A program made the translations under genes and the position numbers. This document shows positions 6,855 to 62,000 of a stretch of DNA of 64,000 bases, piece by piece (within the stretch, counting starts at the first letter, position 1; the number at the start of each line of letters is the position of its first letter). The notes beneath the pieces are model-generated. The model made no database searches, had not been told where the DNA came from, and worked only from the letters and a program-made list of their open reading frames with translations. The stretch is from Amoebophrya sp. A120 (lineage: Eukaryota > Protista > Dinoflagellata): assembly GCA_905178155.1 (NCBI GenBank), contig CAJINV010000001.1:3735706-3799705 (forward strand), in the 5' to 3' direction.

Positions 6855-9800
6855 TTGGTTCGGCAAGCAGTAGCGGAAATGGCGGTCGCGGGTTCGCATC
6901 TTCTGGAAGTAGAAACGAAAACCAGTTGCGAGACGAGAGAAGGCATGATCTTGATGCCGCTGCTCTTCTTCCGCACGAAGAACTCCAGGGAACAAGAGAT
7001 GAAAGACTTTTTGCGCAAGCAGAGCAGCAGGAGGTCCATGACTTCATACTGCCGGGAACAGCAGACGAACCAGAGGACCAGGAGGATTCATCTTCTTGGG
7101 GGTCATCATACTGCCGGCAGACTCCTGCTCCTGTTGCGGCATCGGCATCATCTTCTTTTCTTTCCCCTGACGGAAGTAGAAGTACGCACTAAAGACTCTA
7201 GAGAAGTAGTAGAAGATGCTGCTATTGTTACACAGGCTCCCACAACTACTTTGCCCGCCGGGGGAGTCGGTGTAGTTGCAACTAGTAGTGCCAGCGCTAC
7301 AGCACCGAGTACCTATGTTTCTCACCCGATTTCTACCAGTAATCCGTTGTTGTACGACCACCAGTACCCCGCGGCTGCAACGACGCAGGAGCAGTTCCTG
7401 CCTCCCATATCCCAGTTGCAAACAGCAAGGTGGCAGCACGACTACGAGACTTGGCGGGCTTTTAGCTCCGACGATGTGGGGTTGTTTTTCCCGGGAGAAG
7501 ATCGCTGCAGTGTCGGGCGGAGTAGTTCGCTGGATGGAACAATCGGTGCTGGCTCGTCGCAGGACGGCACCAGTACGAGCTCGAAGAACGTTCGCAGGTT
7601 CTGCGACCGCATCTTTTTTGGAAGTGAGGACCCGTCGTCCCGTGAAGACGACAACCCAGAAGCGGCGGACGAGAAAGAAATTGACACGCAGCTGCGACAA
7701 CTCCAAACCGACGCTCGACCCCGTCGCGAGAAATCAGATTTTCTTCGGGAGGTTGCAAATTGTCCCACACATCGTGGTGCTCGTGCAGCTCCGCAGAAGA
7801 AGAAGAACAGCGCTCCACCTGCCGGTGCTGAAGTAGGAGCAGTAGAACCTGAGCAGACACGGTGGCGGTCGCAAGTTTATTATTTGCAAGAACTTGTGAA
7901 CCGCCCGGGCCCGCCCAATTATGCGAATTCAGGCCTCTCTAAATCTAGTGGTAATGCATCAGCAGGAACCATGCCTGAGCCTGGCATGTTGTTGGGAATG
8001 AATTTTGACGCACATCACACTACAGGCTGTGACCGTCCGGGCGAGGAAATAAACGTGGCTGCGGCGGAGAGTGCAGCTGGTGATGTCGCGCAGCGTGGCC
8101 GCCGGGGGCGGAGGAGAAGCGAGCCGGTAGTTCCTGGCAAGACGACTAGTGCTACGCACTTCTGTCCCGTCTGCTCGTCGGCTCTGCAGGTGGTGCACAA
8201 GCGTGACGCAGCAGCGCAAACGGGAGAGCTCTCCGGAGACGAGGAACAGAAGCAGGAGGTGGACCACCTCCTTCGCCACAATTGCAACACCACTTCGCGG
8301 CCCTGCCCCGGTGAACCAGACAGAGCAGAAGCTGCTGATGCCGCGCAAACTACTATTTCATCTCATCTTCAGCAAGCAAAGCCAAAGCAGCAGGCCCGGG
8401 AATCGTTCCGCACAGGCACATCGATCGCGGCGCTTCGTAAGAATCCTGCGCGAGGAGATGGAGCGAAAGCGAATGGCAAAAGCTGTTCTTCGAGCAGTGG
8501 CACGGACTTTAGTGTTGACCCTAGCTCTATCAAACGCAAATATGTAGTCTGGGTCTGGAAGAATTCGAATTTGTGATGCAAATTCTACATCATGACAAAA
8601 TCTGTCAGGCATGGTCAGCAAAAGGCCCCGTTTCTTGGTACAGAAAGGGGGCATTTGTCGTGCGGATTAGGCGTTCCATTGGGGTACCTGCTCGAAACCT
8701 GTGATGCTAGGGCTTGCATGCCAGAGAGACGATCTGGGCTAGGCAAAAACTGCATCATAAAGGTCTGCGCTCTACTTCCAGACCCAGACATATTTGCACT
8801 TGATACGCTCCGGCGGGAGCACCAGTGAGCGCGCGGCGCTGGCTTTTTTACAACAGGTGCGGCAGGGCGAAAACCACGTGCACCACGAAAGGCAGGAACA
8901 AGATCGTGGAGTGGAGTCCTCTTCTTTCCATTCATTGCGCGATATTACGGACACATTTTTCAGTGAACAGCAAGCGACCGGGTTTGCCGATGTACAACGG
9001 CCAGAAGATTCTGACCTGCTGCGGGTGCGGACCGACTCCGGCGCGGTGACCACCCTGGGACGGGTTGTACGAACCCCGCCTTCCAGCAGCAGCAGTGCCA
9101 GCCACCATTCGATGTGCGTGAACGTGCCGCAGAGTGTCAAAGCGATGGGCCGCCTGAGTCAGAAGATTAATTTCGACCATGTAGCTTTAGTTGCTGCTGG
9201 TGCCCCGCGCCGATCTGATTGCGGTGGTACGACGAAAGGCGCCCGCCCTACCGTCGATGAGGAGGCCGGCGGCGGACCGTCGTCCCACTCGCAACCTGCT
9301 GCTGGTACTGCTGAGGGATCACACTCTTCCTCGACCAACAGGAACAACATGGTCCGGCGCATACTGTATTCCCCTGCGAGCAGTAGCATCAAGCAAGCCT
9401 CGACAGCCGGCGCGGGACCGTCGATATTATTACCCAGTTGTAGTACTGCAGGCGGTGCGGGTGCGGGTGCGGGCGCAACCAGCGCCGTCGGCTTTGTTGA
9501 CCCTGGATTAATGCCGCCGGCTCCTGCAAGTGTTTCTGCTTCGTCCGGCCTCCACCAGCGCACTTCCGGCGCTGCCATATCTCTGCCGGCGCTGACGTCC
9601 GCGTTTCCGGGCCACTGTAGTACGTCGGTTGCGGAGTTATGCAGTACCTCGTTGCTGGACACGACCCTGCTGGTAGACGGAGCTCCAGTGCCACGACAAA
9701 CTACCGATGCCTCCGTTGCCTCCTCATCTGTTCCCAGTTTCTGCTCCGTGCAAGCCTACCTTTGCGCGGATGATTTGCTCCCTGCTCAGAGGGATAGCGC

Positions 9801-9870
9801 AGCCCGAGCGATCACCACGGCGTGTGCGAATCGTAGGCTGTTTTGCAGCGAAGAGAGCGTCAGTTCCTGA
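6855..9870 (+). CDS. Large low-complexity hypothetical protein interrupted by an introner (5' structure uncertain)
   Basis: ORFs 6855..8576 and 8794..9870 join in frame when 283 nt (element 8528-8805 plus one repeat copy) are removed. No recognisable domain. Confidence 0.6.
8528..8805. mobile_element. Introner family A (TIR core TGCAAAAATGTCTGGGTCTGG)
   Basis: TATCAAACGCAAATATGTAGTCTGGGTCTGGAAG ... CTTCCAGACCCAGACATATTTGCACTTGATA, flanked by agctc/cgctc. Removal restores the frame. Confidence 0.88.
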
Positions 9871-11877: not shown

Positions 11878-13623
11878 ATGGCGCCTCACTCCTCGGTCTC
11901 GTTGGAGTTGCTTCTTCAGGACTTTCTGCGCACTGCGCCAAGTACGGTTTCGTCTCGCGCAGCTGCCTCGAGTACTTCCACTTCCTTCGTCGAGAACTCA
12001 AGTCCTTCCGGACGATATGCTGCGTCCTCTGAGGATGGCTATCTCCATGATTTTAGTCCGTCGCGGGCCGCGGCGGCATTGTGGTCTTCTTTCTGGACGA
12101 GCGCGGGACCAGCGGGGCCCTCGTCGGCCAGGGCTGGGTTGACCAGGACATCAAGAACAGGAGCGCCGTCCGGTGAAGATTTTTCGCTGTTTCACGAAAC
12201 AACAACAAGAACAAATCGTTCATCGCTGCTGAGAAACATCAAAAGCCATTTTCTCGCGACCACCACGGGCCTTGCTCCGAGGACCACCAGCTTCGCCAGT
12301 ACGACGACGTGCCGCAAAGACTACGCGCTACCCTGTCCCAAAGGGTGGTGTTTAGCGGAGGACAAGGCGTGCGTGGCGCCGTACAACTGGAAAGGCGTCT
12401 GCGCGCTGCGGGACCACGGCCTCCCGAAACTCAGCGCCGAGGGCAAGGAGGTTCGCGGGGACACGTGCGACACGCCCTGGCTATGAACTGCAAAAGTTGT
12501 ATCGTACTAGGATAAATCGCATGACAAATTAGCTCAGCATGACAAATGGAATTTGTCACGCTGTTTTATCTTGGGATGAAGATTTGTAATGCATGACTGC
12601 GATTACTACGAGTGCGATACTTTTGCACAGGTGGATAATGGCCCTGCGAGGACGATTTCGCGGCGCACCAGTTATCCTGAAAAAAAAGTGTTACAGTTAC
12701 ACACTCTGATAGAAGACAAGCAAGACAGACAACCTCTGTCATGCAGGAAATGCTTGCCAGCCTAATTGCATTCGTGTTTTCCTTTATAGTCTGCGCATCA
12801 CAGGTTTTCTTTGCCATGTCGAGCAACTTTGTGATGCAGAAACTCGAACGAGTGTGTAACTGTAACACTTTTTTCCTTGGATACCAGGCGCGGAACATCT
12901 ACTGCCCCACGATCACGGATTTGGCCAAGGCACCGGAAATGCCCGTGGCCCCGGAGATGGCCAAAGGGAAGAAGCGGCACAACGTCATCGTGCAGATCGG
13001 GCCGCAGAGCGACAAACTGTTCGAGCCGCTGCAGGAGGGCGCGCTGGAACCGCCAGTGCCCGAGTCGCCGCCCGAGGAGAAGCTGGTCATCGCCGTATTA
13101 CAGTGAAAAGTGCCCCCCACCCCTAAATTGCAGAAATTTGTGATGCGAAGTTTCCAAATGAAAACTTTTTGCCATGCATGAAAGGAGTATGAATCTTTCT
13201 GATGCAGAATGTAGGCGTGTATCGCATCGCTTGCATGACAAGTGCCGCTCTTGCTGGGGTCTTATGCAATACAAATTTTTGCTATTCACTATTGAAACCC
13301 TGTGATGCTGATAGATGCAAGAGGGCGAATGTTTCATTTGGAAAGGTTTGCAATACAAATGCTCCCAAGTTCGGGGGTGGGGGTATTTTTCATTGTAATA
13401 CGCCGACGACGGCCTGCTTCACCAGCGCAAGAAGGGCGGACCGAAACTCCCGATGAAGGGTTTGTACAGCCTAGAGGACGGGGCGGTGAAGAAGGACGCG
13501 CGGGCCAAGCCGGGGGCACACCCGCCGGTAAACGAGGACACGCAGAAGGACTTCCGGACGGGTATACCCGCGAACGAGGTCCAGCAAGCGGTGGACGCGC
13601 TCGGTGGGATTGTGCAGGACTAG
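11878..13623 (+). CDS. CPW-WPC domain protein split by three introners
   Basis: After removing 12482-12637, 12673-12883 and 13096-13400 (each plus one repeat copy) the frame reads CRKDYALPCPKGW..C.AP..WKG.C..K....TCDTPWPCEDDFAAHQARNIYCP...KLVIADDGLL... to TAG at 13621. The CPW and WPC motifs are both present. Start codon uncertain. Confidence 0.82.
12482..12637. mobile_element. Introner family B (TIR core TGCAAAAGTATCG(C/T)ACTCGTA)
   Basis: TATGAACTGCAAAAGTTGTATCGTACT ... AGTGCGATACTTTTGCACAGGTGGATA, flanked by ctggc/atggc. It interrupts the WPC motif. Confidence 0.88.
12673..12883. mobile_element. Introner, singleton TIR family
   Basis: TATCCTGAAAAAAAAGTGTTACAGTTACACACTC ... GAGTGTGTAACTGTAACACTTTTTTCCTTGGATA, flanked by ccagt/ccagg. 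Removing 216 nt keeps the frame and removes an in-frame TGA. Confidence 0.88.
13096..13400. mobile_element. Introner, singleton TIR family
   Basis: TATTACAGTGAAAAGTGCCCCCCACCCC ... GGGGTGGGGGTATTTTTCATTGTAATA, with a perfect cgccg direct repeat on both sides. Confidence 0.9.
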
Positions 13624-13673
13624 ATGATGTTCATTCATCAGAGTCGAAACAAATCTCGCTTCAGTAATTCCTA

Positions 13674-13937
13674 GAGCGAGGTAACAAATGACCCGTTAAC
13701 TCGCACCCGCGAGTTAGCCGTCCGGCCGGCCGGCCGGGCGGTTAACTCGCGGTTAGAAGTGTAGACAAATCGAATTGTCGTGGTGCAAATCTACCCCGAA
13801 GTGCTCGCCGATCTTCGATTCAAATTTGTGCTACCATTCGCTTTGTCTACATTTCTAACCGCGAGTTAACCGTCCGGCCGGCCGGGCGGACGGCTAACTC
13901 GCTGGTGCGAGTTAACGGGTCATTTGTTACCTCGCTC
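13674..13937. mobile_element. MITE with about 96-bp TIRs and a 3-bp CTA TSD (PIF/Harbinger-like)
   Basis: GAGCGAGGTAACAAATGACCCGTTAACTCGCAC... (13674-13769) is the near-perfect reverse complement of 13842-13937. CTA lies at 13671-13673 and 13938-13940. The superfamily is inferred from the 3-bp TSD only. Confidence 0.85.
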
Positions 13938-14807: not shown

Positions 14808-17800
14808 ATGGCATCGTCGTCGAGTAGCAGTGCTGCGTCAGGAGCAGGTGCAGGCCCAGATGCAGGTGGGAATGCTGAAAACCAGACGGGAAATCCACCG
14901 AGAAGAATTCCGCCGACAATGGGCGATTTACTCCTGTCATTCCGGGGGTCAGTTTCACAGTGGTCTGATGCGGTAAGGAAGTATGCAATGACCGGCGTTG
15001 AGGAGCGCTGTGCGAGAAGGATGGGAATGGCGCAGGTACAGCCTCAGACCGATGAACTCTAGCGCGTTAGTTCAGTCATGCTGGCATCTATTTTTTATTT
15101 TCAGTGGATGTGGTCTGCGTCTGAATCTGATGCTGATACTGATTTCGCCGCTATCAGTCGAAACTGAAACAAAAAAACATTGATGGACTTGAGCCCGTGA
15201 TGAATAAGTAACGCCAGGTAAACATGTGGTACATCTTGGCCACCCGCGACCTTCACAAGCGACAGACCGGCGGGCGCACCCAGTTGCCAATGGAATTGCG
15301 GCGACGCATCATTGAGTTTATGGGCCCGATTGAGCATCCGGCGCTGGGGATTAGCGGACGTGACGCTTTGCAAATCTCAAAAGCGCAGCGAGCAAGTGAT
15401 CGAGCGAGAGCGGTAGCGTACTACTCTGAGTTGATCAAGGAACGGGCGGAGGCGGGGGAAGGGTCTCTTCTCTTACAACCATAACGGGGGGTCTACTCAT
15501 CGGCTTTAGAACTTTTTGAAAACTTTTTGAAAACTTTTGAAAACAGAGCAAAACGATGACGCGAAACCACCAAGGTCCGACGCCCTTTTTTGGCGCCGTG
15601 CCGTCGTGTTTCGTGGTCATATATTTTGACCGATAAAAGGCGCGCGCGCTGCCGTCGGTCACACGTGAATCGCGGGCGGAATACTCTCCGCAGACTTGTA
15701 ATCTCTTGCGCGTTTCTTGAGCAGCGTGTCGCACAAACCGGGCCGCGTCCTTGATATATGTAGTCACGCACGAAAAGGCTTAGATCCACCCCTCCGCGTT
15801 TCGCCTAGGGGCAAACGCACTCGGGTGGCCGTGCTGTTTATTTGACCGAGGGGCAAACGCACTTGGGTGGCCATCCCCCCATCCGGGGCCAGCCCTCCTC
15901 CTTTTCGCCTAGCAGGGTTTAGGGTTTAGCCCTCCTCCTTTTCACCTGGCGCAGGGCTTGGGTTTAGGGTTTGGGGTTTAGGGCCTAGGGCCTCGGTTCT
16001 CAGGCGCAGCGCGCCGGCCCGAGCGGCGTGTCTGGAGAGATCCAGGGGGTGCGCCCCTGCGCCGCGTTGCGTTTGTAATTCCCACAAGAAAAAGCGGCGC
16101 AGTCGAAGAAGCAGACTCTGAGTTCTGCTATCTTTTTGGCACCTGTTCTGACCCCAGGCACGGCGGCACGCTGCCAGAAAGGAGCGAGGCTGCTGAGTCT
16201 TCAAAAAGTACAAAAGAAGCGTAGCCCAGACATGAAGCAGGCTGGCACTGCCTGCGAAGTAGGCAAAGCTCACGGCTCAGGTTTTGCAGTCTTTGTGGCG
16301 CCGTGCCGTCGTGTTTCGTGGTCATATATGGTGGCCGATAAAAGGCGCGCGCGCTGCCGTCGGTCACACGTGAATCGCGGGCGGAATCCCCTCAGCAGAT
16401 TTTTAATTTCTTACGCATTTGAACGGCGTGCCATCCTGTTTCGTGATAGGTTTCGACCCCGGAGCCGGGGCGAAAAGTTGTATACTTTACACGCGACGAA
16501 TGCCGTGGGTGGTAACGTTATCCACGGCGGCACCGCGTAGGCAAAAAAGCGCGCTTTTTCAACTTTTGCCCGAATTCTGAGGCAAAGCGCGACTCGTGCG
16601 CCCATTTTGAAAAGTTTTTTTTTTGCACTTTTGCACTATATGCGAAAAACCAAAACCGGTGGCATGATGCCGCTTTTCTGGGCCTCAAAAAAACGACTCC
16701 CGAGCTAATTCCCGAAAAAAAAAACTTTTAAAAAACTTTTTAAAAGCTTCCATTTGGGGCACCAAATCGCTGCCGGTTTCAAGCAGACTCCGCCGCGGGG
16801 AGCTTCGAGAAGGGAGGCCAGAAAAAAAGTTTTTTCGGGGTCTTTTCGGGCTCGTTTCGGGCTCATCGAAATAGCACAGCAAAAAAGTCGCACTTTTTGG
16901 CTTCCGCCGTACCACCGCGCCAAAATCGCCATTGCTCCAGCGCCGGTGGTATGCTGGTGGTGTTTTTTTGTTATGTTTCGTCAGTGCCGGCGCTTTTGCG
17001 TCTGCGTCAAGCTTTTGGGTTTTTTGGTACTAGAAGTAGCCTGGGCGATGAAGGAAAAGCTAGAAGCTGAGTCCAGTGCTAGACTCTGGACGAGTTGGAG
17101 TTGGAGTGTGATATTGGATGGGGTATCGCTACGCTTATTTCTCGGCCTGATTTCGTGATAGGTTTGGACCCCGGAGCCGGGGCGGGCTGTTGTATATTTT
17201 ACATGTGAAGAATACCGCTGGCGGTAACATTATCTATGCATGGCGGCACGGCGTAGGGTAAAAGGCGCGAGCTCTCGACTTTTGCTCAAATTCTGAGGCA
17301 GGGCGCGACCTGTGCGCCCATTTCAAAAAGTTTTTTTTGTGCTTTTTCGTTATATCTGGAAAACCAAAACCGACAGCATGGCGCCGCTTTCCTGACCTTC
17401 CAAAAAAAAACTCCCGAGCTGATTCTGGGAAAAAAAACCTTTTGAAAACTTTCCAAAAGCTTTCACTTAGGGCACCAAAACGGTGCCGGATTCAAGCAGA
17501 ATCAGCAGCGGGAAGCTTCGAGAAGGGCGGCCAGATGAAAAGTTTTTTCGGGCTCGTTTCGGGCTCACCGAAGTAGCACAGTAAAAAGCTTGTTGCATTT
17601 TTTGGCCTCCGCCATACCACCGCGCCAAAATCAGCATTGTTCCAGCGTCGCTGTTATGTTGGTGGTGTTTTTTTGTTATGTTTCGCCAATGCCAGCACTT
17701 TTGCGACGAAGGGCATCGCTGAGTCAGGCTTTTGGGTTTTTTTATGTTTGGCTTCCCTCTTTGATACTACGAACAGAGAGCAAGGGAAAGCTTTTCGGTC

Positions 17801-18749
17801 TTTGGCCTTGACCACGAAGCCCGCCGTTGTTGCAGGCTGGGTGGGCCACCAAGCTCGGCGCTGCCTCAACTTTCTCAGGTGCGGGCGTTTTTCACTGTGG
17901 CGGAGTGCGCAAACTGGGCACCCACGAAAAGCGCGGGACCCCATCGGTCACACTGGAACCGCGATGGCATGCTGGGGCTCGATCTCGTGTTGGCCGTGCA
18001 GTCATTGGCCACGAAGTTGCGAGGCAGCTCCTTTGACGAGCAGGCCGGCGGGAAATTCAGAGTTTTCGAAAAGTTTTTGAAAAGTTCTGAAAGTTTAGCA
18101 CAGACCCCCCGTTATGGTTGTAATTCTCGTTGATGCACAAACTTTCGACGCAGCTCCGCGGATGCGAAATGGTGATGCCGTCCATGCAGACACTATAGCA
18201 ACGTACTTCGGCCATTTGGGTCACATCATCGAAGATCGAAGAGGCAACACGATAGATGTATTACACCACGGCAGCGCCACCGTTCCGTTCAGGATCTCGT
18301 TCAATGGTGCGAGACACGACGACGCCACAGGCGAAGCGGCGATGGAACTTCTGGGGAAAAAATTATCCGCACCTCTCGAACGCAAGTACAAGAGTAACCA
18401 TCGCGCAGCCTTTGCTGAGACAATGGAGAAGACACGAAATGCCGTTGTTATGTACTTCAGCGATTACCTCCTCAAAGAATTTGCTTCCGGGAAAGTTGAA
18501 GTTGAAATAACAGAAGCAATTGTCAATGCCGCACCCAAGCTGCCTTGTGGCGCCGCCTATCCCATGACCGAGCGACAGGCGAAGCTGTTCCATTCCGATC
18601 TAGACGAGTCGGACGCGGCCCTGAGTCGTCTCCGATTCGAAGTACATGGACTTCAATTCCATCCTTATTACCGCATCATAAATCATTCGGAGACCCTCCC
18701 GCCTGCGTTTACCATTCGTCTTGGAAAAGAAGATGAGTTTACCGAATGA
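14808..18749 (+). CDS. Hypothetical protein interrupted by a 2.65-kb TIR element (a functional gene only if the element is spliced out, otherwise a pseudogene)
   Basis: Exon 14808-15035, GT-AG intron 15036-15217, exon 15218-15472, then 18129-18749. The joined frame is continuous: ...ERAEAGEGSLL|VDAQTFDAAPRMRNG... Confidence 0.6.
15912..15990 (+). repeat. Short interstitial telomere-like (TTTAGGG) repeats inside the large element
   Basis: agggtttagggtttag and gggtttagggtttggggtttagggcctaggg. Confidence 0.6.
16438..17745 (+). repeat. Diverged tandem duplication (period about 710 bp) inside the large element
   Basis: About 16438-17025 aligns by eye with about 17150-17745 (tttcgtgataggttt.gaccccggagccggggcg ... 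ccaccgcgccaaaatc ... ggtgttttttgttatgtttcg). About 15592-15682 is also repeated at about 16297-16387. Confidence 0.8.
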
Positions 18750-19515
18750 GTGAGCGGGTTGGCCGCGGGAACAGGCTCGCTCAACAATGAGTCGCAGATT
18801 TAAACATAAACCGACGACTATCCTCTTTCTTTCAGATTTTCCTCGAACCAATGGCAATCGTCAAATTGAACCAATTGTGTGAGTAACACTGAGTACCAGC
18901 TGTCGGAACTCTATCACCACATCCAAGAAATTGGCGATCTTAAAAGTACTATTTTGAAATCTTTAAATTTTCTTCCAAAAAGTAAAGAAATGGCGCTGTC
19001 GTGTGTTCGCTGGAACCAATCATTGACATTGTCATTCTTCTATTCTCTATCATGCGGCGACCAATGGCATCGAGGACTCTTCGTATCTTTCGGTGAACGC
19101 CGCTTCGTGATATGTAGTGAGGTCATAAAGTACAAGTACTTATGTTGTTTGGCCAAGTAAGAAAGGGCTACCAAGTTACTACGGACACGGAAATGTGTAT
19201 GAGTCAGTTTCGCAAATCTTCCACTTGCTATCGGAATCGCTTCATATTTGGCACACACGTGAGAAAGTCGAACGGTTAAGCTATCATCAAAATTGTCGGT
19301 GAATCTGAATGTGTATGTGTGATCTATTCCTGGTCATGCGTCGACATCCCCAATACCTAAACTAAAACTTCTACGAAGCCGCAACATGAAATTACTATAA
19401 TTTTTTTCCGCAAATCCATGCTGGATGAACGTTGAGTATGGTGATTGCTATATCTGGTGTCTACTTGCAGCTCGCGATGCATGGCCTTCTTGTGCTGATT
19501 TGATAAAGGATCAAG

Positions 19516-26751: not shown

Positions 26752-27860
26752 GCCTGAATGCGCGTCGCGAAGGCATCGAGCTTTTGCCGAAGTGGATATA
26801 TCGCACTGGTACTGTACTATGGCGTGACTACGAATCGAATCACAGTACGAGCAGAGCCATACTTGTTTGAGCACGTGTAGTTGTCCTTTTCACACCGCCG
26901 CCGGATTACGTTTGCGAACGTGGCACCCACCCTCTCAATCTACTTTTTGTTCCTTGTCGTGTCGTTCGGGCTGAGCACTGAGAAAGAGCAACGATAATTT
27001 CGACGCGATCGTATTGTGACGATGGTGCGCCCGCCCCCGACTTTGGGAGCTTGACTTTCGATATCCAGAAAATGTGTCGATGAGGACGAGGACGATCAGC
27101 ATTTCGTGCCCCGTCGAAAAATAGAAATTTCGTATCATGCGCAGAACAAAATCAAAAGCCAATTCGCTGATTAGTTTGCCCGATCATGTATTGTTCCGGT
27201 TGATGGGGCCTTTCTTGTTTCTTTCCTCATGTCCTGTCAAGCATAAGATCTTCAGGGCCGTTCTCCAAGTTGTCCGTGTGTCATATTTCATCCACTTTTG
27301 TATGATTGAGATTCGATAGAAACTGATTACAAAATAAAGCGTTTGCCCTCATACAACTGCGGCAAATGCCATCGGTTAGAGAGGCAGTTGTTATGGCACG
27401 TCGGTAGTGTCATTGTCTGGTGCAATTGCATGAACAACGAATAAGAAGATGAAGATTTTTCATTAGGTCCTTGTTCGTTCGATTTCTAGTTTGTGTGTGG
27501 TATTTTCCATATCAAGTAAAGGCTTCGTAACGCCAACGAAAACGATAGCAGTATAAGTATTCGCCGGTCAATGTTGTATTTATCCTTTGTCCTCCTCCTC
27601 TGCTTGAACGATATATAACGAACCAACGCCAAAGTAGAAAAAAAAGATGTCTTTATTTTCTTCCAAGAACTGAATTTGACTTTGAGTACAATACTTCATT
27701 CTGCGCATGTTTGAAGCCCGATCCTCTTCTTAAAGAAAAATGATGCCCCCTCTGATATTCCTGAGTTCACCTTTATTTCCTCCAGAAACGACAAGCAAGA
27801 GCCGGATATAGGACGCCCGGACCTGGGGAGATGGTCTGTGACAGACGATAGCACAACAGT

Positions 27861-30800: not shown

Positions 30801-31688
30801 CGGCGGTGGGGGCAAGAAGATGCTTTTGAGGATTTTTACCACGGCGTGTCGGGCGATCATAATCAATTTTTGCAACATGGTCCAGAACCAGATCGCGCGG
30901 CTGACTTCGGTTGCGGTCCCGCCCTCGATACGAGTGACCGCGCGAAATCCTCTTCATCGTCCTCGTCATCGAACAGAAACGCCACTGCTTATCCAGTTCC
31001 CAGCTTTTCGAACGGCATACTATCGCACTCTAGCAGCTCCAGCAGTAGCAGTTCGTTTACGGCCGCGCCGAATCCGACCGGAACAACTCGCAATCACCAC
31101 CCACTCAGCGCAGTTGCTGGTCAGCATCATTTCGTCACCGGTCGTGATGTCCCGTCGTGGCAACAGCGACAGAATGCATATGCCCAAACACAAACTGGCA
31201 ACACCAGCACGGGTTTTCAAAATCAGCATTTGAGCATCGCAGCAGGATCATCCGCGAGCGTCGATCGAAACGCGAGGCATGCTGTGTACGATCGCCGTGA
31301 GTTGCATCATGGACACGTCAACGAGAGCACGAGTAGAGCTGCGAGTAGCAGCAGCAGTGTTCTCCGCTCAGGTGTTTCCTCGGCATCTCATGGCCAGCAT
31401 CCGCACCAGGCGCCATCTGCCCAGCAGTCCGCGTCCTACTTCAACAACCCGGTCCACCGGAGTCCGCGGCCTCTGACACCACGACGGCGCGCAAATGAAG
31501 AGAACCGGCTGTATCACGAGAGTGAATTAGAAGACGAAGCACCCAATGCAAAGCGTCAGAAAGGTCTTCCAAGTGCAGAACTTAACGAGCACGACATGCA
31601 CCCTCAAACTGAAGAGGAATATGAGGAGACGCTTCGCCGTGTGCTCGCGGAATCCACGGAGCTACAGTACCGGGGTGGCTTTACATAG
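27861..31688 (+). CDS. Putative TET/JBP-like 2OG-Fe(II) dioxygenase-domain protein with C-terminal ubiquitin-interacting motifs (true start uncertain)
   Basis: ORFs 27861 and 29103 join in frame via GT-AG intron 28906-29199. The protein has HxD (VHSD) and a distal YHGT, plus UIM-like EDEQLQLEQALKLSLEE, DADLQRALEES and EETLRRVLAES. The domain call is from motif resemblance only. Confidence 0.5.
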
Positions 31689-48200: not shown

Positions 48201-48226
48201 CATACTGCAACGCCGACAGCTTCTAA
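45210..48226 (+). CDS. CCT5: T-complex protein 1 subunit epsilon (chaperonin CCT5)
   Basis: Motifs [76 protein letters not shown] and [16 protein letters not shown]. Five GT-AG introns plus three introners. Confidence 0.96.
45433..45669. mobile_element. Introner, singleton family with TIRs of about 40 bp
   Basis: TATGGCGTTCTCAAATGTTACATTCTCAACTGTTACATGA ... TCATGTAACAGTTGAGAATGTAACGTTTGAGAACTCCATA with a perfect accgg repeat. Removal restores [15 protein letters not shown]. Confidence 0.93.
47753..48009. mobile_element. Introner family A
   Basis: TATGAACTGCAAAAATGTCTGGGTCTGGGA ... TCCCAGACCCAGACATATTTGCAATGCATA with a perfect ggcca repeat. Removal restores [17 protein letters not shown]. 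Confidence 0.93.
48060..48204. mobile_element. Introner family B (opposite orientation to the 40592 copy)
   Basis: TATCCTGTGCAAAAGTATCGTACTCGTA ... TACGAATACGATACTTTTGCAGTTCATA with a perfect ctgca repeat. Removal gives DDVICNADSF*. Confidence 0.9.
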
Positions 48227-49868: not shown

Positions 49869-52797
49869 ATGCGCACGAATGCCAGTGTTGTCCCTTCCCA
49901 GACGCGCGCCGTAGTCCTTTCCTCACCCCCGCGACCGCGACAGTCCACCTCGGAGCAGATAAAGCCACCTGGCGGCGCGGATGACGAACAAGCTCCGAGT
50001 TCTTCTTACCAAGAGCAAAAAAGAAGAGGTTCCAACCGCCGAGCGGTCTACTCGCCCGGCTCACGAACGAGGGGAACTGCACTGCCGGAAGGCGAGGCGG
50101 GACCACCTTCCGGCAAGATGGCGAGCAGCTCGACATCGACTCGCGCTCAAAACCAATTCTCCAGCCCGTCGCCCCCCGTGGGCGGAGGTGGAAGTGGACC
50201 CACGACCGCCGGGTCGTCCACTGCGGGCGGCGCGACGTCCTCGTCCTCCTTGTCGAAGCAAAAGTGGGATAAGATGATCTCCCGGGGCCTCACCCGCCAG
50301 TTCCTGCAGGACAACAAAGAGACCTTCCTCCGCCGGGTCCGGCGCGGCATTCCCCCAGAATACCGCTGGACGGTGTGGCGTGCGGTGATAAACGACGGCG
50401 ACACGATCTTTGGCGGTTCACCAGGGAATGGTAATTCACCTAAGAATTCCACCTCTGTAGGAGCTGTTGACCCGGATAGGGATGGTGCTGCGATGAACAA
50501 TACTGGAGGAACCTCAACAAACCACAGAGCAAGCAATGGAACAACATCTTCAAACAAGACCAATTTTTCTACCGGACTGAACAAGAGCGGAACCACTACC
50601 ACCACCACGCCTAGTTCCGCGAGTAGTTCGATATCCAAGAAAAAAACTGTGTTAGTGTAACTATCTTTGGCTGGCAGCATCACAAATTTGCTCTACATGA
50701 CAGAGAAAATCTGTCATGCGTGGCTTGTAGGGAAAACACACATGAAAAGAGGACTTCATGGCTGTCTGGCATGACAGGCGTAACTCTGTTGCATGTTCTG
50801 CATTACAGAGTTACACTTACACAGTTTTTTTCTTGCATACTCGATGCAGTCCGTGCAGTGCCGGTCCAGTACGTACCAAAATCTGGTTGCGAAGGACAAT
50901 ATATCCTGTGCAAAAGTATCGCACTCGTATAAATGCAAGTCTTGCATTACAAATCTTTTTATTAAGGCGAATCCGCATTACAAATTCCATTTCTCATGCT
51001 AAGAAAATTTGTATTGCAATTTATACTAGTACGATACTTTTGCAATGCATACAATAAGTGGATTAGTCTGATCAAGATCGACATCTCGCGAACGTTCCCA
51101 GAAACCACAGCGTTCGACGATAGCCACCAGAATAAGCTGCTGCGAATACTCTCCGCGTACAGCAACTTCAACCTGGATGTGGGGTACTGTCAGGGCATGA
51201 ACTTCATCGCGGGTCTGCTACTTTTAGTGTCCGGGTCCCACGAGGAGGAAACCTTCTGGATGTTCGTTTCGCTCATGGAACTACGGGGCTTGAAGGGCTT
51301 CTACAAGGACAAGTTTCCCATGCTCAGGTATGATTTTATGCCTATACAAGGCAGATAAAATAAAGTTTGAGCTGCACCACCAATCAATTATCTGAATCTA
51401 TGGGATTAGTTCGAACTGCACCTTATCTGTCAGATTCGATTTTCGTCAGAACAATTCGGTGTGTACGTGCTCATGTGTTGACCAGCATGTAGTTGTTATA
51501 TGAATCCTATGCCATATCGATGAAAAACAGGGTCTACCTGAAGGCTTTTGACCGGCTGCTCGAGGAGGAGCTTCCGGAGCTGCGCAAGCACTTTCGCCAA
51601 GAGGGCGTTCAGCCTGCGGTCTACCTGCACCAGTGGTTTCTGACCCTGTACATCAACTGCCTTCCCCTCCAGACCGTGCTGGTGATCTGGGACGTGGTGG
51701 TCTGCGAGGGCCTGCATGTGTTGCTCTCCATAACGCTCAGCCTGTTGAAGGTGCTGCAATCCGTCCTGTTGAAATTGGAGTTCGAGGACATCGTGAAATT
51801 TTTCAAGACCATGAAGACCGGCGACGAGGTATCCTGAGTAAAAACGTACCCACACCAGAGTCAGGATGGGGAATCTGCTAGACAAATCCACAAGTTTTGG
51901 CTGTTTTGCATGACAAATCTGGATTCGTAGTGTAGTGCTGTTTGAGCTAGCTCAGCAGCATCACAGATCTAGCATACCATGCTGATTGGAGCATGACAAA
52001 TTGCAAAAGACGACTAGAAAATGCTTCTCATGGGGCTCCGCATGAGAAACATTCTCAGCATGCAGATTTGCATTACAACTCTGGCGTGGGTACGTTTTTA
52101 CTCAGGATACGAGGACTGCGACGCAACCATGATCGGGCAGCTGCTCATCCGGCAGTCGGCCAGGATTATGAAATGTAAAAATGTCTGGGTCTGGAAGAGT
52201 GCGAGGTTTGTCATGCACGTTTTGCATGAGCCATGATGTCTGTGATGCACACCCTAGCAATAGAGATCTTGTGAAGGCTTCTTGATGCCTATTCCGCATG
52301 ACAAGTGCCTTCTCAGCGTAGCAAAAATTGCATTCCCTTTGGTACTCATGCAATACAGATTTTTTTGGAATCCAAATGCAGCATCACAAGTTGCATTCTT
52401 CCAGACCCAGACATTTTTACACTTGATAAGGATCGAGCTCTCGCAAAAGGTGCTCACGATCATCAATCAGGAAAGCAGCGGGAACGACAACTTCACGGAC
52501 TTCGACGATTTTTTCGGCGGCGGGAACGAAGCGAGTGGTGCGCCGGCAGGGAACGAGACCGGTATAGAAATTATACAAGGATCATGTCGGTCTCGTCGTT
52601 GAGTTTTAGTTTTTAACTCGTCAATCTATCAAAACCCGTTTCTGTCAAAGCGACCTCACTTGGCATGTAAAACAGGCGACGCCGAGCTCTCATGGTTCGA
52701 AAAAATGGGGAAAGATCTAGCCACATTCTTCGAGCAGCCGTCTGAGCAGAAGCCCGCCGCTACTTCTGGTACCGCGACAGCATCGGGGCCGCCATGA
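49869..52797 (+). CDS. TBC-domain Rab GTPase-activating protein with four introners
   Basis: Motifs RRVRRGIPPEYRWTVW, IKIDISRTFP (IxxDxxR), VGYCQGMNFIAG (YxQ), QWFLTLY and VLVIWD. Start codon uncertain. Confidence 0.92.
50632..50839. mobile_element. Introner, singleton TIR family
   Basis: TATCCAAGAAAAAAACTGTGTTAGTGTAACT ... AGTTACACTTACACAGTTTTTTTCTTGCATA, flanked by ttcga/ctcga. Removing 213 nt keeps the frame. Confidence 0.88.
50902..51051. mobile_element. Introner family B (opposite orientation to the 40592 copy)
   Basis: TATCCTGTGCAAAAGTATCGCACTCGTATAAAT ... ATTTATACTAGTACGATACTTTTGCAATGCATA with a perfect caata repeat. Removal restores YQNLVAKDNKWISLIKIDISRTFP. Confidence 0.92.
51830..52109. 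mobile_element. Introner, singleton TIR family
   Basis: TATCCTGAGTAAAAACGTACCCACACCAGAGT ... ACTCTGGCGTGGGTACGTTTTTACTCAGGATA with a perfect cgagg repeat. It can be read as a GT-AG intron, 51829-52113. Confidence 0.92.
52167..52428. mobile_element. Introner family A
   Basis: TATGAAATGTAAAAATGTCTGGGTCTGGAAGA ... TCTTCCAGACCCAGACATTTTTACACTTGATA with a perfect aggat repeat. Removal gives QSARIELSQKVL. Confidence 0.92.
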
Positions 52798-53653: not shown

Positions 53654-56203
53654 ATGCTAGGTAGTACAACGAAAACCATGACCCAGCCCCTCCCGACCCT
53701 TTTCCACGTGACGCGTGCCCAGAGATGGCAGAGCGAAGCGGACGTGGTCGCAGCCTTTTCTGCGGACGAAGTGCGCCTCGTTTTCGACGACCTCGGCCTG
53801 GAAGTTCGGTTTGTCGGTGGGCGACGCGAGATCCGCCGGCGGTCCTTCACCGATGAAGAATACGACCAGCTTGGGGCGCCGTCTCCAGCAGTTTCTGCCG
53901 CGCCCCGGGGGCGTGACGAGGAGCGGGCGGACGTCAAGCGCGGCGTTGCTGATGTTGACACGCCTGTTCCTATGGACGTCGGACGAGCTACCTTTACACG
54001 AACGGGAGGACGTGCAGCTCCCGCTTTCGCTCCCACAGCTCGGGCTCAACATTCCTCAATCGGCGGTAATGTTGGTGTTGCAGCCAACATGGACGAACAA
54101 ACAAATCACAGGACGTCGAGCGTCAACAGCACTAAAGCCGCCCGCAGTAGGAGCCTCGTGAGTTGGAAAAGCCAAGGTGGGAGAGCAGCGAGCAGCCGCA
54201 CAGATGAAATTGACTACAAGGTCTCGTCCCCGAAAAATGCCCACGCAGATGCGCGAAAACGGCCCGGCAGTGTGGGAAGTTGCAGTAGCTCTTCCTCGAC
54301 GTTAAATATGTTGAACAGGGGTACCTCTAAGAGTAATTCTCGCGGCAATATCCCGATCCCGAATCAAAATCCGCACAATTCTCGTGAAGATGAAGAGGAG
54401 GACGGTGCAGCACACCTTGGTCCCCTGCGAACAATCCCAACAGTGGAGATCCGAAATCTGCTGCTCAACTGCAAAAATAGTGCAGGAACAACTTCTGCGT
54501 CCTTCCGGCATGGCACCTACCATGCGCGGGACCACCGCAGCGCCGCGCCGCCGCAGCCGGTGCTGACGTTTGAGGACCATGCGGCGCAGAAACTGACGAA
54601 GATCGTGCGTGGGAAGCTGGTGCGCAACAGCGTGGAGCGGATGCGGCGCGAGATGCATCTTGCCGCGGCAAAGATCGCCGCCCTCTGGAAGAACAGCGCA
54701 CACATCCGCAGCATTGAGCGGATGCGCCGGCAGATCGAGGAGGAGGCCAGGCTTGCGGCCTCGGATATCGAGTCTGAGTTCCTCGAGCGCGCGTCCAACC
54801 GCAGCTTCAACAACCAGCGGGGTGGAGCGGCATCCGGCGGGACGAAATCCGCCTGCGACGAGCAGTCGAACAAGAGCTTTCTTTCCTCCGACTCGGAGGA
54901 CGAGGAGCAGGACGACCTGGGGGACATTGTGAACGAGCGTGTGACAAAAGCCGTGGAGAAGATCGTGGCGGTGCTGCGCGGGCACATGGACCGCACACAG
55001 ACGGCCCAGATGAAAATGGAAATGACCGACGCGGCGAACACGATCAAGGCCTACTTCCGCGGCGCGCGGGAGCGCGCGGAAGTCCGCCGGGTGCGGAAGG
55101 CGATGCACGAGGCCGCCTTCAAAATTCAGCAAGCTTACAAAGTGCAGAAGTCCGGCCGGGGGGGCATATTGTTGGGGCCGATTTTCGCGGACGGGGTGGA
55201 GGCGGCAAACGACGACGAAATCGATCTGCGAATGGCACCCGCTTTGCCAGAAAACTGCTCGGGCGGCTTGGTGGGGGAGAGGAACTTTTGTTCTTCTACG
55301 GTTCCTGCCGCGACCGATCTTCACCTTCACAGCGGGGGAACAACTTTTACACATTCGCGCAGAACGTCACGGTCCACAACGCAAATTATGAATGGTGCGA
55401 ACAATATCAATACTTTGGTGGAATATGTAAATTTGGTGGACCACGGCAAGGAGCTTGCAAGTGCAAGTGGTGTCGTGGTTGTTCCGACTTCATCTACAAC
55501 TACTTCTATCAGCACAACCACTGCGACCACCTCCGAGGACAACAAAACCGCAGCGCGCATTGACCGGGAGATCAACCGCGCGTGCGATAAGATCAGTCGC
55601 CAGCTCAGCCGGTTACACAACCTGCAGGCAACTTGTTCTAAGGACCCGAGCTCCTCCATCCCTGCCACGTCTGAGGATGACGACCAGACTTCGAAATCCT
55701 CTGCGGCCTCGAAGATGACGAAGCAACAGCGGAAGCAGGAGGCCCTAAACTCGGCGAAGCTGGAGATTATTCACGACGAGACCACGGCCGCCGCGTTGAA
55801 GATCGCGGCCTTCATTCGCGTATGCATTGCAAAAATGTCTGGGTCTGGAAACTTGTGATGCGAAAATGTGAATGATGAAAGCAGTTCTGAATGGACTGCA
55901 GCATAACAACTTTCCAGAACGCTTTCTGATGGGAAATCCGCATGAGAAACTGCGTTTTTGCATGTTGACAAAAGAGGCTGCGACTTTTGCTGGATATGCA
56001 ATACAGATTTCCTAGCAATGAAAAGCTAGCATTACAAGTTCCAACTTTCCAGACCCAGACATATTTGCAGTGGATATCGCGAGAGATCGAGAAAATCGCC
56101 TCAGCAGGTCCAGCGGGAGACGCAGTTGGTCAAAGAGGAGATCGGCGCCGCCGTGCGCCGCATCGACGAAGACTTCCAGCGCAGAAGGACGACTGCTGGG
56201 TAG
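53654..56203 (+). CDS. IQ-like motif / coiled-coil protein with one introner
   Basis: Repeated IQ-like segments (AAQKLTKIVRGKLVR, AVEKIVAVLRGHMDR, AANTIKAYFRGARER, AAFKIQQAYK). Removing 261 nt extends the frame to TAG at 56201. Confidence 0.7.
55821..56076. mobile_element. Introner family A
   Basis: TATGCATTGCAAAAATGTCTGGGTCTGGAAA ... TTTCCAGACCCAGACATATTTGCAGTGGATA with a perfect tcgcg repeat. Confidence 0.92.
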
Positions 56204-57285: not shown

Positions 57286-58394
57286 ATGAGTGACAGTCTG
57301 AAGCTTTCCATGCCTCATGAGAGGCCAAACCGCTCGATGGAGAACGAAAAGCTGCAGGGCCCGGTAAGCACACAAGTTTACGATGTTGCATAGTACTTGC
57401 TTGGGTTTACCATGAGTAGATATCGCTTTCTGGTTGAAAAATTAGCTCGAAATAAGGCCACTTAATTTTGTTTCGAGGAGTTCCTGATGAAGAACTTGTA
57501 ACTTTTTTTGCAGGTCGGGAATATCGGCAAGGCGGACCACCCTGTGCAGAAAATCCAGCTGCAGAGCACACGTGACAAGCTGAAGATGGAGGATAGGCTG
57601 GACACTGTTGTTTTCGGTAAAAAGAAGATATTGACAGGTTTCCTTTTGATGAAGTGGATGTTGTTTCCATTTTTCACCGCTCGCATACGCATGGTGAAAA
57701 TTCTGCCAAAGATGAAAATGAAAAAAAATGCAAATGAGATGTAAGGAACAAAAACTACACGACAGGATCTCACGTGAGCATGCGAAATCGAATGGAGAGG
57801 ACAATTATGGATTGCAAAAATGTCTGGGTCTGGAAGATTGCGAGATTTGTCATGCTTGCCTGGCATGACAAAAAAGTTTGTGATGCGTGTCCAAGAAGAG
57901 ACCCTGGTGCCTGTCATGCAAAAACGCAGTTTCTCATGCGAACAAAGCAACACAAAATAGCGCAGATATTTCTCATGCTTGGCTGTGCATTACAGAGCAC
58001 TCACTATTCCCAACATAGCATTACAAGTTTCCAGATCCAGACATTTTTACATTTCATGACAATGCTGGCCCAATACCAGCGGCTTCCCGGATTGCAGTCG
58101 AGCTTTGTCGGTCTCGAGGCGCATTTAGACCTGGACGAAACACTTGAGTAAGTTTTTGTTATTTATTGCTTTCCTCTTGACCGACTTGTCTCATGACAGG
58201 ATGTGCCTGCCACAGTTTCGCACTTATAACAAAGGGAGAGCAAGTTGAAAACTTTCAATCAAGAGGATCAAAATTTATGCAAAAAAATCAGATTCGAAGA
58301 CTTCCTGAACCGAAAAGACATGGCGCCAGTACCGGAAATGGGATTCCACCACACCATGCACGACGTCCTCGAGAACAAGTTGTACAACAAATAA
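57286..58394 (+). CDS. UMP1: Proteasome maturation factor UMP1/POMP (no single ORF in the track covers it; 3 GT-AG introns plus one introner)
   Basis: The spliced product reads ...DHPVQKIQ...VVFGSHVSMRNRMERTMLAQYQRLPGLQSSFVGLEAHLDLDETLEFEDFLN...HDVLENKLYNK*, matching the Ump1 pattern HP..G....R..MER..RLP.L.SS...DE...FED. Confidence 0.85.
57806..58058. mobile_element. Introner family A
   Basis: TATGGATTGCAAAAATGTCTGGGTCTGGAA ... TTCCAGATCCAGACATTTTTACATTTCATG with an acaat repeat. Removal restores MERTMLAQYQRLP. Confidence 0.9.
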
Positions 58395-59040: not shown

Positions 59041-62000
59041 ATGTCACGGCAAATGTCGGTGGCTCGGAGAAAGAACAAATCGAGTACTGGTAGCGGACTG
59101 ATGCAGAGAGGACCGACTCGAAGACTTGCTACCGCGTGTGCGGCGACTGCGCTGGCAGCCACCTCTGTGCTGGGAAGTAGAAGTGCGGGAGAAAGCAGTA
59201 CTAGTCCGGAACAGGAACGACCTCGTCACGATCCAGCGGCTGCCACGACCGCAGCAGAGAACGAGAGTTCATGCTCCTCTGTGGAAGTTGACGAAGACAA
59301 TCAGCGCGAACTCGCGGCTGACCGCAGTTCTTCACCCTCATCTCCGCCTGGATATGGGGGCTCAACTTCTTCGTCAACGAACCCCCATCAAGCCCCCAGT
59401 TCTTCAGGCAGGCTGAAAGTGCCGAAGTTTTCCTCGCAGAATTTGCGAGCGTCGTCTTCCACTTCCTCGCTGTTCTTGCAGATGGGTTCTGACGGGGCCG
59501 CCGGAGAGGCGAACACAAAGAACTCAGATGGTAAAAATTCGAAGGAACCGCATTACGATCCGGCGCACATCCACACGGACTTGGAGAAGCGGCTGGGGCA
59601 CTCTTTGGGATACGTGTTGAGGAAAAAGTCCGCGCGGCCAGACGACTACTACTTTTTCGAACAGCACGAGGCGAAGCACATCCACCCACCGCACGATCCG
59701 ACGGACCGGGGGCACCAGCCGGTGAGCGGGAGGATCCGGACGCACGGCTACGTGCCGTTCATGACCCACGTCGACGAAGAAACGCATTCCATGCTGCAGC
59801 TCGCGGAAGTATTCACAGAAAAAAACGCATCCACATCCATTTTTTGCATAGCAAACAGATGACTTGATACGTGTTCTGCATGACAAATTGGATGTGGATG
59901 GGTTTTTTTCTGTGGATAGGAAGACGACACCGAAATCCACGAGCGACCCTACCACTACGCGCCCTCAGCTAGCTCCCTGCGGAAACTGGACGCGCACCAT
60001 GAGGAAGTAAGGATGGTTTTCTCGCATGTGTATTTTTTGGTCCTCGTTTCGCTTTCATTCGCCCGCGCGCGTGCTGCGGCTGTTCTTCCTGACACATCAA
60101 TCAAGTAGAGCTTGTGAGGTAGCACGACGAAGATGAACATGAATCAGAGTCGCTTCCACGCCCGGAATCAAATTTCCATCGTAGGTGCGCGCCATGGTGC
60201 TCACGAAGAAAGACGCTGGGGAAAACACCGCGACCGCAGAGAACGTGCCACAGAGCACGCTACCAGAGCAGCCAAGAACGAGTGACGCAGTAGAAGAGCA
60301 GCGTCCGAAACAGTTCGGCAAGAAGAAGAATCTTCGTCCTCAGCGTACAACAGGAAGTTCCTGGATGCAGCAAACGCTGCAAAGTTCGTTTCCGAGTGCC
60401 CTTTCCGCGCAGGAGCCGCGGGATAGCAAGATTCAGAAGACGGTCACGGAGCAGGAAATCAACGTACAGGTGGACGGTATGTTCGCCGACAGTAGTACTA
60501 CTAACGCATATTACTCGTCTCCATCGTCATCTCCGGAGAGTGACTCCGAGGTGACGCTTTTGGATATCGACGAGGGCATGTTGCGGTCGAAATACCTCGC
60601 CGAGGCCGAGCGCGAGAACTTCTCCTGGACGTACAAGCTGCAGAGCGCCGTTTCGTCCTTTCTGCAAGACATCGCCAGCCACTTTACCGGGCACATTGAC
60701 CTGAAGCACCTGGGCGCGAAAGTGGGGGAACTACTGGCCCCCACGTGGTCCTCGGAAGAGAAGGAAGACAACGAGTCACTCACCGACGAGCTGGCGAAGA
60801 CGTACCACGGGGTGTTCAGCGAGAGCCACAAGACCACACCGCTGACGGACAAGCGCGACGCCACGTCGCAGCATTTGGGCACGATCTTCGTGGGGAGGCA
60901 GCAGCAGCGGCTCAACGTCATTTTCGACTCGGGATCCACAAACTTGTGGCTCGCAGCTGCGTATAGATACGATTGTTCTCAATGATTTTTGGTCTGATGC
61001 GAGGTCGAATCATGTTTAATTTTATTTGCGGACCGGTTCCGCCTTGCATTATTTTTTTCTTCTCACCAGCTGTGGCTGCAAAATGAGAGGGAAAACTTTG
61101 AAAATTAAAAAAACTTAACAGCGAGTGCGACAGCGTTCGGTGCCAGGAAAACAAGGAGACCCTGTACGACATTCACAAGTCGGGCAAGGAGGCGACCGAC
61201 CTGTGCAGTGTCGACCGGCAGGCGTGCAACTCGATCCGCATCGAATTTGGCTCTGGTTCGCTCGGGGGGCCCCTGGGCACGGACACGCTTTACCTGGCGG
61301 GGCACAAGATCGAAAACCAGCGGTTCGCGCTGATCCACGAGGAGAGCGGCTCGGTGTTTGACTCGCTGAAGTACGGCGGCATCATGGGCCTTGCGTTCGA
61401 GGACATGAGCTCGCCCCGGCTGAAGTCGGTGATCACCAACGCGATCGCCAACAACGTGTTCCAGGGGCAGAACATCATGGCCTTCTACTTCACGAAGAAC
61501 CCGAACATTCGGTCCGGCGCCTACTTTGGGGGTGTCAACCCGAGGGTGTACCACGGCGTGCCGGTCTGCTTGGACGTGCAGAAGGAGCATTACTGGCAAA
61601 CCGGGCTGAAGCGGATGGGCTTCCGGTTCGGGCCCCACGGGAAAACCAGCTGGGTCACGCATCCCGTGGGCGGCGATCCACCGAAAAGCATCTTCTGGGA
61701 CACAGGTTTTTGTTTTTTGATTTTGTGCATTTGATGTTGCGATGCAGCAATTCCAATAATTTATTTCGAAAACAAACAATAAAGCCCTTCTCGTATCACG
61801 GCAGAAAAAAACGACAAAAACTTTCAAATTTAAACGACAAGGTACTACCTGGAATGGCGGCCCGACTTACATGACGCGACACAATCTGGATTTCTTGCAC
61901 GCAAACGGTGGTTGGAATTCCGTGGAGTGTTCGAAGCTACACGTCAAGACCGGCACAGAGAAGATCCCTTACCTGGTTCTGGACTTGTGTATGGACACGG

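Follow-up and report, generated by a model that had tools for sequence, protein, structure and literature searches.

Introners of Amoebophrya and related systems

In the genome of the dinoflagellate Amoebophrya sp. A120, Farhat 2021 described over 60% non-canonical introns with RNA-seq support, distinguished 1954 introner families and proposed an alternative splicing route (PMC7789003). According to that work, the inverted repeats of A120 start with TAT, followed by about seven variable bases and a run of at least three A; direct repeats of 3–5 nt (5 bp in the legend of an example figure) lie at the exon/intron boundary, a hairpin can form and the ends have no splice dinucleotide signature. 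Here we analyze a stretch of 64,000 nucleotides from this organism (GCA_905178155.1, contig CAJINV010000001.1, positions 3,735,706 to 3,799,705 of the forward strand; hereinafter the window), in which 16 elements of the form TAT...ATA interrupt the coding exons of eight genes. The organism is the same by protein identity, and the TAT start, the A-run, the repeat length and the family structure are all found here; judged by sequence, the elements belong to the published, and hence already known, A120 class (Farhat 2021, PMC7789003), and an earlier note on this DNA had likewise pointed to introners with inverted and short direct repeats and to abundant non-canonical introns in Amoebophrya. The literature already poses the question of how A120 disposes of most of its introns without GT-AG; the present analysis does not discover this system but makes the question sharper. 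What it adds beyond the published class is a uniform 5-bp duplication, equal orientations, canonical ends at chance rate only, and a shared internal motif with its spacing. Whereas Farhat 2021 reported variable repeat lengths and argued against a general mobilization by transposase (PMC7789003), the duplication outside the TAT tip is uniformly 5 bp here. Searches of the literature and a look-up within PMC7789003 gave no earlier mention of the internal motif and its spacing, of insertion in two orientations or of the junction register, though figures S19–S25 of that paper may show some of these; the consulted portions of PMC9860276 and PMC11453091 hold nothing further on orientation in A120.

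Several described transposons are comparable. Gozashti 2025 lists A120 family 38 as 'Ginger; 5-bp TSD, TA/TA Termini' (TSD, target-site duplication), with integrase-like homology (PMC12130899, sd07). Among the 56 of 58 A120 rows covered, many other families of that catalog, which we liken to ours by description, have lengths as seen here (106, 149, 209, 252–261, 278, 305 and 321 bp) and mixed junction dinucleotides; there they are mostly 'TIR DNA, Unknown' (TIR, terminal inverted repeat), with an automated TSD mostly of 2–6 bp, and are not united as one system (PMC12130899). IS3EU and GingerRoot elements have TA..TA termini, an integrase-related DDE transposase and no target base preference (PMC10045372, PMC6839031, PMC12730594). 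Both the termini and the lack of a target preference recur here, but their TSD is usually 6 bp, as opposed to 5 bp in 214 and 6 bp in none of 260 copies of our elements. Ginger1 and Ginger2 differ in their TG..CA termini from the TAT..ATA seen here, while the 5-bp duplication falls within their 4–6-bp range.

On the side of removal, the nonconventional introns of euglenids are similar in lacking GT-AG ends, in the pairing of their ends (predicted in our case), in their TSD-like repeats and in coexisting with GT-AG introns (PMC12501133, PMC11282704). Those of Euglena carry the signature 5'-N3CDG ... CH'GN5-6|R (PMC12501133, PMC11282704). However, this code needs C-D-G at intron positions +4 to +6, which no register of the present elements gives: G occurs at tip position 6 in none of the 32 ends, and other registers put T or A where the Euglena code needs C or G. 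Moreover, the elements described here are, in contrast to the euglenid introns, recent multi-copy families with fixed tips.

Anatomy of the elements in the window

A gapped scan of the window for TA[TC]...[AG]TA or ATG ends, with a 30-nt inverted-repeat score and flanks matching in at least four of five bases, returned 15 elements; the 16th (12482–12637), which has an indel in its TIR, was recovered separately. Twelve Markov-simulated windows yielded three matches in total, with scores of 11–13 as compared to 15–28 for the 15 real ones. All 16 elements that the earlier note had placed in eight genes, with lengths of 109–305 bp, were thus recovered by the re-scan. The flanking direct repeats also agree with its list, being perfect over 5 bp in the same 12 elements and matching in four of five bases in the remaining four. 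Its count of about nine families has to be lowered, since BLAST and global identity group the elements into eight: F1 (~150 bp, four copies), F2 (253–278 bp, five copies), F3 (~210 bp, two copies) and five singles.

The ends are strongly constrained, with T at position 1 in 31 of 32, A at position 2 in all 32, T at position 3 in 31, and A at positions 11–14 in 27–29. Differences between the left and right end of an element concentrate at positions 4–7 (in 4–8 of 15 elements at each) and are rare at positions 1–3 and 9–20. This two-part end, comprising a tip and an inner repeat separated by a variable spacer at positions 4–8, resembles that of DNA transposons. As a consequence of the TIRs, all 16 elements are predicted to form end-to-end hairpins, whichever strand is folded (z −3.6 to −14).

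Further copies in metagenome contigs

With 19 bases from the F2 end as a query, metagenome contigs yielded at least 135 matching places, and of the 80 matches listed, 76 share one accession prefix. None of the loci (L001–L136) overlaps the window. The tolerant scans excluded L001, L028, L036, L062 and L075, which are records other than those with the main accession prefix; L001, from viral contigs, matches only by chance, within a phage gene, and L075 carries bacterial genes.

When TIR pairs were picked blind to their flanks (n=260), the perfect repeat measured 5 bp in 214, 4 bp in two, 7 bp and 8 bp in one each, and 6 bp in none; one copy (L039:5095–5374) is flanked by an 8-bp repeat. The end library of the tip-blind scan contained one false internal end, whose low-repeat pairs were disregarded. 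A reversed-sequence control (14 versus 134) is invalid as a false-positive rate because reversal preserves repeats. The tips are as uniform as in the window: a scan requiring TAY/RTA found a TAT start in 286 of 287 copies and an ATA end in 285, and the tip-blind scan showed approximately 2% left-right mismatch at tip positions 1–3. Among the matches listed, which palindromes dominated, no new tip type emerged in the loci. Across 231 perfect repeats there is no base preference. Together with the 16 window elements, 272 orientable metagenome copies constitute a pooled set of 288, which forms 29 clusters. Within a family, copies run with and against the host gene about equally often (68:49, 17:14, 7:8, 5:4 and 4:4 by family; 21:21 for F1). 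Six copies (L014:5305, L029:571, L030:3862, L042:3308, L043:6015 and L044:4533) are enlarged by ~200–700 bp of unrelated sequence and retain their ends and a perfect repeat.

The metagenome copies likewise lie mostly in genes, with the best frame being stop-free within 8 codons and the flanks scoring as coding in 317 of 341. One locus (L043:334–8791) encodes the largest subunit of RNA polymerase II, RPB1, and holds seven copies; six, one of them 972 bp long, are exonic, and the copies interrupt two RPB1 stretches, with exact removal giving open frames in Pfam RPB1 regions, while the seventh sits in a canonical intron, and thus exons are not the sole target. Single mismatches between the two repeat copies with a callable frame (n=48) are synonymous in 26 cases as against 27% at random, which indicates that the host genes are under selection; by repeat position they number 13, 11, 6, 9 and 9, without edge enrichment. 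Both repeat copies may be constrained, as a sliding junction would entail (26 of 48 synonymous versus 36–43% expected if one copy is free, p 0.01–0.07; 12 of 27 in the unambiguous subset). A codon-phase bias was rejected, with 12 of 16 window elements in phase 1 but a near-even 79/90/61 in the larger set.

Exact removal from host genes

Deletion of each element along with one repeat copy places all 16 junctions in open plus-strand frames of the eight genes. Seven hand-built models are stop-free, namely those of a CPW-WPC gene (352 aa), CCT5 (550), a TBC gene (480), a UMP1-like gene (135), a 754-aa gene, the gene around 8528 and an aspartyl protease gene (its 5′ part); that of the C2-domain gene is unresolved downstream of both its element junctions. 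Retention, on the other hand, would shift the frame or introduce stops in 15 of the 16 cases, the exception being 57806–58058 in the UMP1-like gene. As the coding share of the window is only ~47% or less by a rough hand count, the location of all 16 elements in exons is not due to chance.

The clearest case is CCT5 (45210–48226, plus strand), which has four GT-AG introns and three elements: 45433–45669 (repeat ACCGG) at codon 75, 47753–48009 (F2, GGCCA) at codon 531, and 48060–48204 (F1, CTGCA, opposite in orientation to the copy at 40592) at codon 546. Its exact-removal model is identical over 550 of 550 residues to the public protein P0007, whose source label is Amoebophrya sp. A120. From 120 matches, 94 homologues of 500–570 aa were kept, and after P0007 was set aside, all 93 remaining ones align without a gap across the three junctions. 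Hence, the proposal of the earlier note that deleting an element plus one repeat copy rebuilds CCT5 is borne out. Exact-removal models likewise equal two further public proteins, P0127 and the unnamed P0128. The former corresponds to the CPW-WPC gene (11878–13623, plus strand), which has no canonical intron and three elements: 12482–12637 (F1, CTGGC/ATGGC) lies inside the CPW-WPC domain, and its removal completes positions 1–59 of PF09717 in P0127, followed by 12673–12883 (F3, CCAGT/CCAGG) and 13096–13400 (single in the window, CGCCG). The latter corresponds to a 902-aa gene of no known family that is interrupted by 8528–8805 (F2, AGCTC/CGCTC). The annotation of A120 was derived from transcript alignments, and its introns are backed by RNA-seq (PMC7789003).

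The remaining elements are found in five genes. The Rab-GAP TBC gene (50118–52797, plus strand; PF00566) combines two GT-AG introns with four elements: 50632–50839 (F3, TTCGA/CTCGA, opposite in orientation to 12673), 50902–51051 (F1, CAATA), 51830–52109 (CGAGG) and 52167–52428 (F2, AGGAT). Two lie in the C2-domain gene, 40044–40294, which starts with TAC (CAATT), and 40592–40740 (F1, ATTGA). The 754-aa gene, without a Pfam match, has 55821–56076 (F2, TCGCG, opposite in orientation to 47753); the UMP1-like gene has 57806–58058 (F2, ACAAT, ending in ATG), which is open and frame-preserving if retained; and the protease gene has the 109-bp element 59810–59918 (GGAAG). The name UMP1, given by the earlier reader, was not confirmed by Pfam or PDB searches on gene fragments, and PDB searches with short fragments gave no match. 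A stretch of ~14 kb (19507–33720) with four long frames, among them a 2414-codon SacI-domain frame and a MORN-repeat gene, is free of elements, while neighboring genes have 1–4 each; insertions are thus clustered.

Exact removal can coincide with a G[TCA]-AG register in four of the 16 elements, as GT-AG at 51830, GC-AG at 47753, and GA-AG at 52167 and 59810. The earlier claim that only 51830 and 47753 offer canonical ends therefore holds for GT-AG and GC-AG but overlooks the two GA-AG registers. No in-frame G[TCA]-AG pair exists within ~30 nt of the ends of 12482, 12673 and 48060, and at 45433 in CCT5 every such pair would take 8 or 19 residues out of a conserved block. Of the 288 copies in the pooled set, 11 allow exact GT-AG, where chance predicts 10.5, six allow exact GC-AG, and 32 allow any G[TCA]-AG, where chance predicts 29.0. 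U2-type GT/GC-AG ends thus occur at the exact junction only at chance rate, which, together with the three public proteins that equal the exact-removal models, indirectly supports the view that the elements are removed without GT-AG. All 11 canonical introns delimited in the window genes start with GUA.

A related but different insert of 2651 bp (15473–18123), absent from the list of the earlier note, has the form TTA...TAA, with a 22-bp perfect TIR and the repeat TTCTC. Its removal joins a 291-aa frame from the ATG at 15224, which has no significant Pfam match and at best a faint F-box. It contains an internal 570-bp duplication and no long frames, and its TTA tip is of the type that Farhat 2021 gives for strain A25.

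Internal motif and origin of the elements

All 16 window elements, across the eight families, contain the motif GCATNACAA (GCAT(G/C/T)A(C/G)AA), with 37 copies in the 3.5 kb of elements as compared to one in the other 60.5 kb. It recurs in 279 of 287 copies from the metagenome loci, where matches outside them lay, as far as these were read, in decayed copies. With one mismatch allowed, there are approximately five per copy, in both directions, mostly facing outwards at 40–54 nt from an end; same-direction pairs with a spacing of 31–33 bp, corresponding to three turns of B-DNA, recur in 13 of 16 multi-copy clusters. The motif and its spacing fit putative binding sites of one DNA-binding protein, or a common ancestor. 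A role of the motif as a branch point was rejected: near the 3′ end it shows no sense-strand excess (sense 43 versus 57; 33 versus 52 with one mismatch allowed).

We infer that the TAT...ATA elements may be non-autonomous and owe their movement to a single DDE transposase of the integrase type, from the neighborhood of Ginger, IS3EU and GingerRoot. Such an enzyme would bind both the inner repeat and the internal motifs with their phased spacing, and would cut its target with a 5-bp stagger, giving a 5-bp duplication of unselected sequence. The proposal of the earlier note that one transposase system made all the families thereby receives indirect support from the uniform 5-bp duplication, the shared tips, the motif and the spacing, but a transposase itself was not found: neither the frames of the window nor the eleven copies longer than 335 bp encode one. 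The shared motif offers a handle for locating it. The window has no match in Rfam.

The long inverted arms at 6131–6712, composed of 15–16-nt tandem units of the GGGCCCC type, harbor in their interior a 33-bp piece resembling the F2 inner repeat (6462–6494) and one copy of GCATNACAA.

Position of the junction within the repeat

A single-base difference between the two repeats of a copy pinpoints the junction at nucleotide resolution, so that its register, and the relaxed-donor idea outlined below, can be tested in RNA-seq. At 12673, the match to P0127 needs 0–4 upstream repeat bases kept, i.e., the loss of the last one, whereas at 8528 the match to P0128 needs 1–5, i.e., the retention of the first. 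Therefore, a register common to all copies, if there is one, lies 1–4 nt inside the repeat. For a CAP gene (L067), Pfam aligns to its profile position 86 a glycine that results from the upstream base at repeat position 3, the downstream alternative falling outside the aligned stretch, which would weakly narrow the register to 3–4; on visual inspection, a cysteine-rich gene (L065) hints at the opposite for repeat position 4. Register 4 would make N-U-A-U the start of the intron.

The tips also show a strand difference. Changes at tip positions 1–2 number one on the 5′ arm and eight on the 3′ arm (p 0.039, post hoc), a TAC tip is confined to the 5′ arm, where it occurs four times, a fifth case being a false pair (post hoc), and all three 5′ tips reading TGT or TAG are preceded by G. 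The TAT tip may accordingly act as a donor lacking G at +1 (N-UAY), which we regard as a post hoc lead and not as a result. Speculatively, the tip read forwards would supply, with one repeat base, the donor N-U-A-Y (TAT at positions +2 to +4), placing the junction 4 nt into the repeat; read backwards, it would offer an A located seven bases upstream of the 3′ junction, and distance would then set the place of that junction. Branch points at a fixed, short distance of a few bases from the 3′ end have precedents in Yarrowia, Trichomonas and Giardia (PMC2483917).

Mechanism of removal

Since neither the orientation nor the target site restricts the elements, any signal for their removal must be symmetrical or structural. 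We favor, as reasonably probable, a scenario in which one cut-and-paste transposon lineage entered genes in either orientation, and in which a spliceosome freed from the need for G-T or A-G takes its copies out of the pre-mRNA exactly. With identical ends, a transcript from either strand would present the same tips and the same end-to-end hairpin; the hairpin would bring both repeat copies together, and a cut-and-join in register inside the repeat (1–4 nt in, probably 3–4) would leave one copy. Most spliceosomal proteins and the U2, U4, U5 and U6 small nuclear RNAs (snRNAs) were detected in A120, while that of U1 was undetected (PMC7789003). A bolder elaboration, which we offer as no more than a tentative possibility, is that the A120 spliceosome needs neither G+1 nor AG and that the symmetrical transposon tip supplies both signals, as the donor N-U-A-Y when read forwards and by fixing the distance to the 3′ junction. 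A lineage spliceable either way at any target could then have spread into hundreds of families.

Several observations weigh against this scenario or parts of it. Selection for RNA pairing is not seen: mismatches compatible with G-U wobble on the sense strand number 263 versus 274 in the mirror case, and at positions 4–8 of the F2 tips the left-right match is 0.662, identical to the shuffled value of 0.662; inner F2 positions match slightly above shuffled, an excess for which subfamily structure can account. The earlier suggestion of hairpin-guided excision is plausible from the end-to-end folding of all 16 elements, but the wobble asymmetry that would go with it is null. Further, a stable hairpin of 25–35 bp would mask both ends from the snRNAs, and the assignment of removal to the RNA level draws on published work and the annotated proteins. 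The TTA...TAA insert described above lacks both the GCATNACAA motif and the TAT tip, so that, if it is spliced, neither is needed for removal. As for the origin, the shared motif and spacing could reflect common descent rather than shared binding, no transposase occurs among the 131 longest of 320 open frames in the loci, and Farhat 2021 reported finding none in A120 (PMC7789003). The donor lead fares equivocally among hold-out ends, where four of eight tips with a clean single change fit it and four do not; on inspection, the latter comprise one misregistered tip, one decayed copy changed at both ends, one tip preceded by G and forming GT, and one that is contrary.

Among the competing explanations, a separate structure-guided endonuclease and ligase, akin to tRNA splicing or to the euglenid system, could act on elements of the same origin at the hairpin base without regard to sequence. 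We consider this rather unlikely, though it deserves serious weight. The folding of all 16 elements on both strands (z −3.6 to −14), the full strand symmetry of repeat, motif and A-run, the retention of ends and repeat by internal expansions up to 972 bp, the failure to detect the U1 snRNA in A120 (PMC7789003) and the restoration of a frame upon removal of the TTA-tipped insert with its 5-bp repeat all suit such an enzyme. It sits less well with the absent wobble asymmetry and with positions 4–8, which lie beside the cut and are often unpaired; the leaning of tip changes to one strand (1 versus 8, p 0.039) is not predicted by pairing alone, and no candidate enzyme was identified. Removal at the DNA level or during transcription would require that the ends be synapsed by the transposase, or by a domesticated relative of it, and that polymerase slippage or microhomology repair across the 5-bp repeat then give the element-free sequence; this we judge decidedly improbable. 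Its appeal lies in an anatomy that looks like DNA recognition, with a two-part TIR, motifs three helical turns apart and no strand bias, and in the fact that microhomology joining would drop mismatched bases beside the tips, as at 8528 and 12673. However, both the window and the L002–L136 assembly are dense in elements, a state that permanent excision would not leave behind; each cell would have to carry out hundreds of exact events; the published RNA-seq junctions were defined against an element-bearing genome (PMC7789003); and element length lacks the 10-bp periodicity of the sequences eliminated in ciliates. Excision from DNA is thus unlikely.

Least probable of all, and very unlikely, is that an ordinary spliceosome uses nearby cryptic GT/GC/GA-AG sites, that the elements are retained, or that the apparent junctions are template switches of reverse transcriptase in dead genes. 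A hairpin with a short direct repeat is a known set-up for such template switching and is present here; four of 16 elements permit exact G[TCA]-AG, and 57806 is open if retained. Against this, in-frame G[TCA]-AG pairs within ~30 nt are missing from three of 16, the only ones at 45433 would cost CCT5 8 or 19 conserved residues, the frequency of canonical registers is that expected by chance, the synonymous excess among repeat mismatches argues against dead genes, and CCT5 and RPB1 require exact removal. Translational bypassing was dropped, as the published transcripts are free of the elements. We therefore retain spliceosomal removal from pre-mRNA as the preferred explanation.

Other repeats in the window

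An intergenic 264-bp hairpin element (13674–13937) has 105-nt arms that are 94% complementary and the 3-bp flanking repeat CTA. Around the VPS28 gene (2856–4944), an inverted pair matching in 17 of 20 positions lies ~2.1 kb apart; it has no flanking repeat and may be due to chance. In the C2-domain gene (36290–39610), a ~45-bp exon-end sequence recurs near 36292, 37193, 38158 and 39567, and these recurrences surround a CTTCTGAAG-rich block (36420–36930) and a palindrome with 43-nt arms (39209–39298); the region looks like nested insertions or duplications within one large intron.

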